Part shown: positions 9,001-12,000 of the stretch, piece by piece | How the letters are laid out: each line of letters starts with the position of its first letter | How positions within the stretch are numbered: the first letter of the stretch is position 1 | Virus record (IMG/VR): IMGVR_UViG_2859810971_000004 | DNA length: 24,933 nucleotides | Origin: a virus | Lineage: Duplodnaviria > Heunggongvirae > Uroviricota > Caudoviricetes | Strand: one strand, 5' to 3' | Made by a program: the position numbers

Positions 9001-12000
9001 TTACCACACCTGATTTAAGATGCAGCTCGCACCGTGGGACGTTTCCGGGAGCCCCCTCAGGGCGCTCTGAGGTGTACTGGCAATTGAGGTGTACTGGCAA
9101 TAGCGGACACTACCATTTGTTCTTTTTTTAAGCAGTCATCTGATGATATTTTTCCCTGAAGGCTGCCGGGGAGATATTCCCCAGACGAGAGTGACGACGC
9201 TGACGATTGTAGAAAATCTCAATGTATTCCCGTATTACTGAGATGGCTTCATCCCGGTTATTAAAACGATAGTGGCTCAGGCTCTCATTTTTCAGCGTTC
9301 CCCAGAAGCTTTCCATCGGAGCGTTGTCGTAACAGTTACCTTTACGCGACATTGATGTTTTCAGACCAAACTGCTCCTGTATGACCCGGTAATCGTATGC
9401 GCAGTACTGTGAACCTCGATCAGAGTGGTGGATTAGCCCGGCAGGTGGGCGCTGGCTCCTGAGCGCCATAAACAGGGCTTTACCTGTCAGCTCTTTTGTC
9501 ATGCGCTCTCCCATGGCGTAGCCGACAATTTCGCACGTATAAACATCTTTGATGCCAGCGAGGTACAACCATCCCTCCTGTGTGGCAACATACGTCAGGT
9601 CCGCCACCCAGACCTGATTTGGTGCTGTAGGAGCGAACGTCTGGTTCAGCAGATTTGGCGCAACTGGCAGATTGTGGTTCGGGTTCGTAGTCGCTCTGAA
9701 CTTGCGTTTCTGCTTACAGCGTAGCCTCAGCTCCTTACGAAGACGTGCCAGTCGGTCACGACCAACGATGATGCCATTCTCTGCCAGCTCCGTCTGGAGC
9801 CGCCGGGTTCCATATGTTTCGCGAGTGCGGATATGTGCCACCTTAATCTCCGGTTTTAGCCGCTCATCACTTTGTTTTCTGTCTGAGGGTTCATGCTGTA
9901 CCCAGTTGTAATAACCGCTCCTGGATACACCAAATACCTGACACATCGCTTCAATGGGAAATTGTTGTCGCCATTGTTCGATTAACGCGTATTTTTCAGC
10001 GACTCCTGTGCAAAATACGCTGTTGCTTTTTTTAATATATCTCGCTCAAGGCGAGCTTCATTTAACGCCTTACGCAGTTGCAGAATTTCAGATTCCAGTT
10101 CAGCCACCGTGCGGGAACCAGGAGTACCGAGCCCTTTTCTGGCGGCGGTAACCCATTGTCCTAAAGTGCCTTCAGGAAGGGATAATCGGGAAGCGCCTTC
10201 ACTGATCGAAAGTTGATTTTCAAGAACCGTTCTGACAGCTTCGGCTTTGAACTCTTTAGAGTAACGTTGGGTTTTTCTGCTCATTATTAGCTCCTTCTGA
10301 TGCCATTCTATTTCAGGAAGGAGTGTCCATTAAACTCAGGCTACCTCAGTTTATCTTCAAATCTTAAACGCAGGGCATCAGGCAAATAAGAACGGAAGCA
10401 GGGAATATCTTTTGTTGTCTGGGAATTCATCGTTCGTGTCCATCAATATAGATGGGCGCGATTGTTGCCAGACAGGACAATTTTCACAAGACGTCGCTGA
10501 TGGGGCGCTTACTGTTGTTCTGAGGTGAGCATATCACCTCTGTTCAGGTGGCCAAATTCAGTGTGCCACTTCAAATTAAGCATTGCCAGAATGATTACAT
10601 ACCAGCGTTAATGGCTAACCAACGAAGCCAAGGTTGGTAATTAAGGAGTTCTCCACGGGTGAGGTGGAGTGCGTGCGCCGGACACGGGTGAGTATCCGGC
10701 ATGTTCTTTAAAAATCTGAATACCTTGACTCAAAAATCATTATTGAAATTGTAGTCCATGAGATACTCATTTTTACAGGAGGGGCATTGAGTTTTCGTAT
10801 ATTTATCGCCTTCCTCGATAGGGAAAGGTTGCAATATAGATATTGCTCTCTTCGCAAAACATTCTGGACAAAAATACATGGTAATCTTGCCAGAGCTAGT
10901 ATTGCACTGTCTGGCATACACAATCGTTCCAGTAATCAATTAGCGAGGTTCGCAGTCTTCACTTTGGAACTTAAACTTTTCTATCTCCGTGAGTTTTGCT
11001 TTGAGCGCAGCCTCATTGCTTTTAGAGATTGTCAGCTCATCAATGAGAGACAAATATTCAAGCTGAATGCTTGACAACTTAGAGTTTATTTCAGACACAG
11101 CGCGATCAACCTCAGCCTGAGTTTTTGCTTCATTGAATAATTTTAACATTGATGCAGTCTCTTTGAGAGCTGACATCGCTAATACATCACTTGCTCACTC
11201 TTCTTATTGTTGGGGTATTCAGATTATACAAATTTCTTGTTGTTGGGGAATAACAGGAACCACCTCGCCTGACGTAGTTAAAAGCAGGCACACAACGCGA
11301 AATGACGCGGCGGTAAGTATGGCGGAGTTATTCCTTCCCCGTTGAGGACACCGGGTTGTCAGGTTGACCATACGCTTAAGTGACAACCACGCCACAACAC
11401 TCCATGTTGATTGGTACCTTTGGCGGCATCAGTTTCATTGCTGGCTGATGTCCGCCCTTTTTAAAGTGAATTTTGTGATGCGGTGAATGCGGCTGAGCGC
11501 ACGCGGAACAGTTAAAAAGCGATTAGTTCCCACGTATCGGGTGGTTATGGGTTTCCCTGTATCCGGCGTTAATTGTTAACTGGTTAACGTCACCTGGAGG
11601 CACCAGGCACCGCATCAACAAAGTTCACTTCGGTGATGAAAGGTAAGAGAAAATGTTGAATGTAGCTATTGAAAACCAGAACGGGTGGAATTATAGTGCA
11701 TCTGCACCTCATAAAACGGGGGCCGGGCGTGGAAACCCGAACGTTACTCGAGCGCATAGCCGCGCTGAAGCGGTTTTTTTATGCGTAATGCACAGCTCCA
11801 TTCAAATTATGGTGGGATGTGCAGGGCAGTCGCAAGACTGGCCGGGTTCTCGAGTGACCGGTATTTCCACCCCTGTACGTCTCACCACCCTTATGGTCGT
11901 GGAAAACCTCGGTGGTGAGTTAATTAACTTATCACTCGAGGATGCCATCATGGCTACTATCCCTGCCCTTTCTCACCCTGACGTAACCATCGAAAACGGT

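Follow-up and report, generated by a model that had tools for sequence, protein, structure and literature searches.

Known remnants of insertion sequences (ISs) arise by nested insertion and subsequent recombination or deletion, and what is left behind is a complete IS copy lacking a target duplication, a gap in the adjoining DNA and a fragment of the same IS at the joint. The usual explanation for IS copies devoid of target duplications is either IS-IS recombination or adjacent deletion (PMC11708052). Shigella chromosomes host 229-348 IS insertions, and IS600 is among the five ISs that have expanded in them (PMC7373316). A second group of related structures includes the IR-IR junctions and (IS)2 dimers of IS911, IS2 and IS30, elements whose transposases share class and chemistry with that of IS600. 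In an IR-IR junction IRR and IRL are set tip-to-tip across a spacer of 2-3 bp (PMC9333248). In IS30, intramolecular reactions of such junctions lead to deletions that start exactly at the IR edge (PMC9333248).

The locus described here shares with known IS remnants a full copy without target duplication, missing adjoining DNA and a same-IS fragment at the joint. It resides in a DNA stretch of 24,933 nucleotides (the window), where one of five IS600 copies, copy 3, is followed at its IRR end by a second version of its own outermost 17 nt (Table 1). Compared with known remnants, the fragment, at 17 bp, is exceptionally small and forms a direct tandem with the identical stretch of the surviving copy, which gives it the look of a tandem repeat, and no intermediate genome documents the steps leading to it. 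We favor the view, with a probability of roughly 0.75, that the outer 17-mer is the inert stub of an older IS600 copy (copy A), joined inside its IRR by the copy now present. The doubled end is made of two direct IRR units with a spacer of 0, and differs therein from an IR-IR junction; it also lacks the promoter-like site of such junctions. Junction-driven deletions starting from the exact IR tip (PMC9333248) could nonetheless have produced the joint.

Table 1. Features of the doubled IS600 end and of the neighboring IS elements (positions in the window; L011, the pCP301 locus used for ISSfl4 comparison)
Feature	Position	Strand	Basis or remark
IS600 copy 1	490-1753	-	target duplication GTT
IS600 copy 2	5406-6669	+	target duplication GCA
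Internal ISSfl4 ORF1 fragment, ~109 bp	6845-6952	-	L011 3624-3732; abuts ISSfl4 IRR tip
ISSfl4 (IS66 family), right-hand 2.1 kb	6953-9067	-	99.8% identity to pCP301 ISSfl4 (L011 1354-3468)
ISSfl4 IRR tip, GTAAGCG	6953	-	ISSfl4 comparison
ISSfl4 tnpC	6985-8586	-	ISSfl4 comparison
ISSfl4 tnpB	8583-8933	-	ISSfl4 comparison
ISSfl4 ORF1/tnpA, last ~137 nt	within 6953-9067, abrupt end at 9067	-	ISSfl4 comparison
Solo 17-bp IS600 IRR stub (outer unit)	9068-9084	-	identity to outermost 17 nt of IRR
Inner unit (complete copy, IRR nt 1-17)	9085-9101	-	sequence match
IS600 copy 3, complete, 1264 bp	9085-10348	-	IRR tip 9085, IRL tip 10348
IS600 copy 3 orfB, 272 aa	9128-9946	-	ORF call
IS600 copy 3 orfA, 100 aa	9982-10284	-	ORF call
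ISSfl4 left end	10349-10512	-	L011 3924-4087; first 82 nt of ORF1/tnpA plus IRL tip
IS600 copy 4, 1263 bp	13833-15095	-	1-nt deletion
IS600 copy 5, 1263 bp	23398-24660	-	1-nt deletion

The unit TGAGGTGTACTGGCAAT occurs twice in direct succession on the plus strand, with no spacer and no mismatch, and the sequence across the repeat reads cagggcgctc, TGAGGTGTACTGGCAAT, TGAGGTGTACTGGCAAT, agcggacactacc. Tandem Repeats Finder reports the same array at 9068-9101 (period 17, 2.0 copies, 100% matches, score 68). A tandem duplication of the IS600 terminus at the outer end of copy 3 had been described in an earlier note on this DNA, and both the repeat and its location at the IRR end are confirmed; the span proposed there, 9068-9106, starts correctly and overruns the end of the repeat (9101) by 5 nt. 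A search of the window with up to three mismatches allowed located the 17-mer six times, against 0.08 expected from shuffled sequences. Each of the five IS600 copies accounts for one match, its IRR tip, and the remaining match is the extra unit, which is the sole IS600-derived fragment of the window beyond the full copies. It matches IRR nt 1-17 at 17 of 17 positions, as a solo terminal remnant should, and no further IS600 sequence is found outward of it. Both units have the orientation of the adjoining IRR of copy 3. The repeat is not a target-site duplication, being made of IS sequence and having both units on the same side of the element.

Assignment of copy 3 to IS600 is straightforward. 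The element is ~1.26 kb long and carries orfA and orfB, in keeping with the typical layout of IS600 and of the IS3 family, in which overlapping orfA (HTH) and orfB (DDE rve) frames are fused by a programmed -1 frameshift. The same genes in a reference locus (L003) have Pfam domains HTH_Tnp_1, HTH_21, rve and rve_3, and elements sharing this IRR end are labelled by PGAP 'IS3-like element IS600 family transposase, programmed frameshift'. With annotated IS600 elements of Shigella and E. coli the element shares the 1264-bp length, orfA plus orfB, the HTH_Tnp_1 and rve domains, the TG...CA tips and, for copies 1 and 2, the 3-bp target duplications; copy 3 departs from them in lacking a target duplication and in having the extra 17-bp stub. 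As orfA and orfB of copy 3 run on the minus strand, the IRR tip of the complete copy falls at 9085. The IRL (element orientation, TGAGGTAGCCTGAGTTTAACGGACACTCC) and the IRR (tip inward, TGAGGTGTACTGGCAATAGCGGACACTACC) are imperfect inverted repeats with TG...CA ends, starting with TGAGGTAGCC and TGAGGTGTAC, respectively. They agree at nt 1-6, 10-12, 17-18 and 20-27; the IRL reads TGAGGTAGCCTGAGTTT and departs from the IRR after nt 6. Agreement being limited to these positions, the 17-mer is specific to the IRR. The only long block conserved between the two ends is CGGACACT, at nt 20-27.

No 3-bp target duplication flanks copy 3, as in IS orientation the flanks are aac at the IRL, and att, or gag beyond the stub, at the IRR. 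We read this absence as the result of a secondary rearrangement, and not as an argument against IS600 identity. Copies 4 and 5 lack 3-bp target duplications as well, so that three of the five IS600 copies of the window mark rearrangement joints rather than simple insertions. The 1-nt deletions of copies 4 and 5 map at alignment positions 1178 and 1220, and copy 4 has a shorter orfB, of 269 aa. In copy 3 the IRL bears a private substitution at 10329 (IRL nt 20, TTTAAT versus TTTAAC), which changes the first base of the nt 20-27 block, and a second private SNP at IS position 497. Mosaic analysis of copy 3 among the five copies found too few SNPs to decide for or against a recombinant origin.

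The DNA on either side of copy 3 and its stub is ISSfl4. Segments 6953-9067 and 10349-10512 match the pCP301 element at 99.8% over 2115 bp and at 100% over 155 bp, feature the tnpA-tnpB-tnpC organization and the GTAAGCG termini, with tips at 6953 and 10512 (the latter is the IRL tip, ending with GCGCTTAC), and Pfam domains TnpB_IS66 and DDE_Tnp_IS66 are recorded for the ISSfl4 genes. Intact ISSfl4 continues past the breakpoint as cagggcgctc/atcatgc, and the break falls after the equivalent of L011 nt 3468. ISSfl4 nt 3469-3923 (L011 numbering), 455 bp in all, have been replaced by IS600 copy 3 and the 17-bp stub, and both ISSfl4 tips have been kept. The coincidence of the duplication with a breakpoint in IS66 tnpA, pointed out previously, is thus real, since the stub starts right after the nt 3468 equivalent within ISSfl4 tnpA. 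Describing tnpA as truncated is only in part appropriate. The gene is broken there, but is not simply truncated, as its 5' 82 nt and the IRL resume at 10349-10512, and the intervening 455 bp are gone.

The 109-bp piece at 6845-6952 belongs to an older ISSfl4 left-end remnant, which is uninterrupted (464 bp) in related genomes (e.g., L002 12638-13101). As this piece abuts the ISSfl4 IRR tip, a full ISSfl4 element entered the older ISSfl4 remnant before IS600 did. The present ISSfl4 tips are not flanked by any visible 8-bp duplication (TTCTTTTC versus TGTTGTTC). The 61 bp just outside the ISSfl4 IRL tip (10513-10573) recur at 100% identity in related loci, also in inverted orientation, as at L002 20322-20262, beside IS genes, and are probably part of another repeated element.

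The window coincides with CP026810.1 over 14,657 nt, the whole length available for comparison, and the 34-mer formed by the two units is found with identical flanks in three separately deposited assemblies, CP026810.1, CP049606.1 and JARGEV010000001.1. CP049606.1 is the genome of S. boydii 600080, a clade 1a strain, assembled from PacBio RS II data and polished with ~300x Illumina reads (PMC7545283). The three assemblies differ mutually by 2-7 substitutions over 12.5 kb, and hence represent separate isolates assembled separately; the occurrence of the 34-mer with the same flanks in all of them tells that it is not an assembly error. The junction had been expected to vanish from independent assemblies if spurious, and it did not: the 34-mer is present in all three, one of them based on PacBio plus Illumina data. 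Identity to strain 600080 is 99.95%, and IS sites are in common, and on these grounds the DNA most likely comes from S. boydii. Five related chromosomes (L002, L005-L008) have only the 464-bp ISSfl4 left-end remnant, with no IS600 in it, which indicates that the events are lineage-specific. IS600 copy 2 is missing in the same five chromosomes.

The doubled end has been found nowhere else. A 52-nt probe spanning it had no full-length BLAST match in 72,556 PLSDB plasmids or in 5,426 complete E. coli genomes, exact scans for the 34-mer gave 0 matches in GTDB species representatives and in JGI metagenomes, and a gapped pattern (a partial IRR of 14-44 nt plus a full IRR) gave 0 matches outside the orthologous locus. 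Among the fetched Shigella loci (~20-kb segments from nine genomes) the 34-mer occurs at the orthologous site only. Partial extensions into the flank, noticed among the matches of the 52-nt probe, proved on direct reading to be loose resemblances only. In E. coli FDAARGOS_944 (L016, NZ_CP065613.1, ~497050-497097) the DNA outside the IRR tip is loosely IRR-like (GGTGTATTGGCAC followed by TGAGGTGTACTGGCAAT), and the same holds for loci L017-L019. Such IRR-like flanks could be chance occurrences among thousands of sites, or reflect a weak preference for IRR-like targets.

The structure of the joint is informative on its origin. If U denotes the 17-mer, the bases around the repeat are GCTC-U-U-AGCGG. 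Any other register of duplication would demand that the flanking C match the last base of U (T17), or that the A after the repeat match the first (T1). Neither does, so the duplicated segment starts exactly at the IS tip and comprises nt 1-17. The edges of the repeat, CTC/AAT and TGA/AGC, show no microhomology. Transposase strand transfer characteristically leaves a joint lying exactly on a cleaved IS tip, and judging from the sequence the joint was most likely made by a transposase. Moreover, as copy 3 lacks a target duplication and ISSfl4 nt 3469-3923 are gone, the locus must have undergone a deletion in which two or more IS600 ends took part. Given the 229-348 ISs per Shigella chromosome and five IS600 copies in 25 kb, nested hits are to be expected.

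These elements can be arranged in a plausible history. Copy A would have inserted into ISSfl4 ORF1 after the equivalent of L011 nt 3468, with the IRR toward tnpB and tnpC. Transposase would then have linked the 3'-OH at the IRR tip of a different IS600 to the IRR of copy A, at the nt 17/18 boundary. The 3-bp target implied by this step would be ATT, nt 15-17, and the staggered cut would leave exactly 17 nt. The rest of copy A (~1247 bp) would eventually have been lost along with 455 bp of ISSfl4 ORF1, and a single complete IS600 would be left, devoid of a target duplication, with 17 bp of the former IRR after it. The deletion may have followed either of two routes. Homologous recombination may have taken place, after nested insertion, between IS600 copies in direct orientation, one of them located at 3923/3924. 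Alternatively, an IRR-IRL junction formed between two nearby copies may have attacked intramolecularly, deleting DNA from the IR edge. The two routes would yield the same product, and the sequence appears to fit either; the order of the events and the route of deletion proposed here are our reconstruction. Of the two options raised in the earlier note, that of a solo terminal remnant of a former copy is therefore the one we favor, in light of the exact match to IRR nt 1-17, the lack of a target duplication and the loss of 455 bp, while an aberrant IS3-family transposition is a needless assumption, since ordinary strand transfer into the IRR of another copy, plus deletion, suffices.

What weighs against the nested-insertion history is its length, as several steps are required, at least two or three IS600 end-joinings and one or two deletions. 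Its intermediates have been looked for. No record was found of an IS600 located at ISSfl4 3468/3469 without the stub, with ISSfl4 nt 3468 joined to a normal IRR; four E. coli plasmid matches spanned the whole query, and in these IS600 is ~0.5 kb off, next to a distinct IS66 element. A search for the IRL-side junction was equally negative, its matches consisting of two pieces 560 bp apart, and the predicted nested junction (CCGCTATT joined to TGAGGTAGCC) is absent from the plasmids and from the complete E. coli genomes. With Shigella sampled as ~20-kb loci from nine genomes, the missing intermediates are weak evidence either way. IS600 copies 2 and 3 have opposite orientations, and an inversion between them was considered as the source and discarded, as the GCA duplication of copy 2 is intact and its flanks are contiguous in relatives.

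The failure to find the nested intermediate is also what one would expect if, after a normal insertion of copy 3, slippage or break repair had locally doubled IRR nt 1-17, with no second transposition. Small tandem duplications are common mutations, and the product is indeed a perfect two-unit tandem. Yet for a process blind to IS boundaries, a duplication starting exactly at the IS tip, without microhomology at the edges, would be a coincidence, and the lost target duplication and the 455-bp ISSfl4 gap would need a separate explanation. Such a local event is an unlikely source of the repeat, if the first to be considered after the nested insertion. Less credit can be given to the idea that a mobile 1281-bp IS600 variant, endowed with a doubled IRR tip of which the outer one was active, moved into ISSfl4 in one piece. 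The outer unit borders immediately on non-IS600 DNA, at ISSfl4 nt 3468, a position expected of an active tip. But the 34-mer was found at no other site in PLSDB, in the 5,426 E. coli genomes, among GTDB representatives or in JGI metagenomes, and the four remaining IS600 copies of the window, without exception, have single, undoubled IRR tips. Work on IS911 suggests that the spacing between tip and subterminal sequences matters (PMC2909936), and in such a variant the outer tip would be 17 bp farther from the nt 20-27 block.

It is slightly less probable still that IS600 transposase reproducibly prefers nt 17/18 of its own IRR as the site of strand transfer, as only one such joint was detected in all the collections searched. 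If true, the geometry of IS600 self-targeting would differ from the tip-to-tip arrangement of IS911 and IS30, and the doubled tip might offer an alternative cleavage site. Evidence that IS600 repeatedly hits its own IRR at this position would add a small detail to the knowledge of target choice in the IS3 family; nothing in the present data shows that it does. Targeting of resident ends by IS3- and IS30-family transposases is documented (PMC9333248), and a resident IS600 IRR was involved at the site, as would be needed for an IS600 circle to integrate beside an end recognized by the transposase, in the manner of IS911 and IS30. This process, though, gives IRL-IRR junctions in which the tips face each other across a few bp (PMC9333248), whereas the present arrangement consists of two IRR units pointing the same way, with the complete copy's tip set against nt 17, on the inward-facing side of the stub, which makes IR-targeted insertion very improbable. 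Hardly any weight is left for an artefact of assembly or polishing at the IS boundary, conceivable for a highly repeated element and long-read based assemblies, because the junction is identical in the three assemblies of different isolates mentioned above, one of which was polished with Illumina reads.

Returning to nested insertion followed by deletion, the resulting stub is an ordinary one-off scar, of a kind already known, vertically inherited in one S. boydii sublineage. The stub most likely does nothing at present. In IS911 the IR is bound by its transposase in the subterminal portion, and the tip stays available to the catalytic domain (PMC2909936). The stub holds the tip, and lacks the CGGACACT block (nt 20-27), whose distance from the outer tip exceeds the proper spacing by 17 bp. 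By analogy with IS911, and taking nt 20-27 as the putative binding site, a stub devoid of the block probably does not bind the transposase, and would not qualify as a functional IS3-family end. The statement that the transposase-binding end is doubled at this site is accordingly doubtful, and probably wrong. The search for promoter-like or terminator-like sites created by the doubling, carried out in the 8850-9250 interval, revealed none. A 56-aa ORF on the minus strand (8930-9100) starts in the repeat, and is a mechanical ORF only.

The stub marks a pile-up of several IS600 events inside ISSfl4, in a degraded prophage carrying an ipaH gene, and, as a lineage marker, sets one S. boydii sublineage cleanly apart. 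Annotators are advised to be cautious, as IS600 copy 3 is no simple insertion; beyond annotation its significance is little. The IpaH effector (571 aa, LRR_TTSS plus NEL domains) is encoded at 2942-4657, and is also encoded in several complete Shigella chromosomes, where the identical protein is found in different IS contexts. The gene sits in a heavily degraded lambdoid prophage, to which segments 1751-2203, 11653-12285, 15409-16848 and 21350-22096 also belong. Prophage content includes a PphA-like phosphatase, a Rha/Ash regulator, a Q-like DUF1133 protein, DUF1367 and a DnaC/IstB-like ATPase. The prophage has been broken up by IS600, ISSfl4, IS1 (17176-17679) and another IS3-family element. 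The latter is present in full once, with orfA at 12538-13014 (HTH_Tnp_1) and orfB at 12938-13810 (rve), and IS600 copy 4 lies 22 bp beyond this orfB. A partial repeat of the element (12491-13047 versus 22843-23400) terminates precisely at the tip of the IRR of IS600 copy 5.
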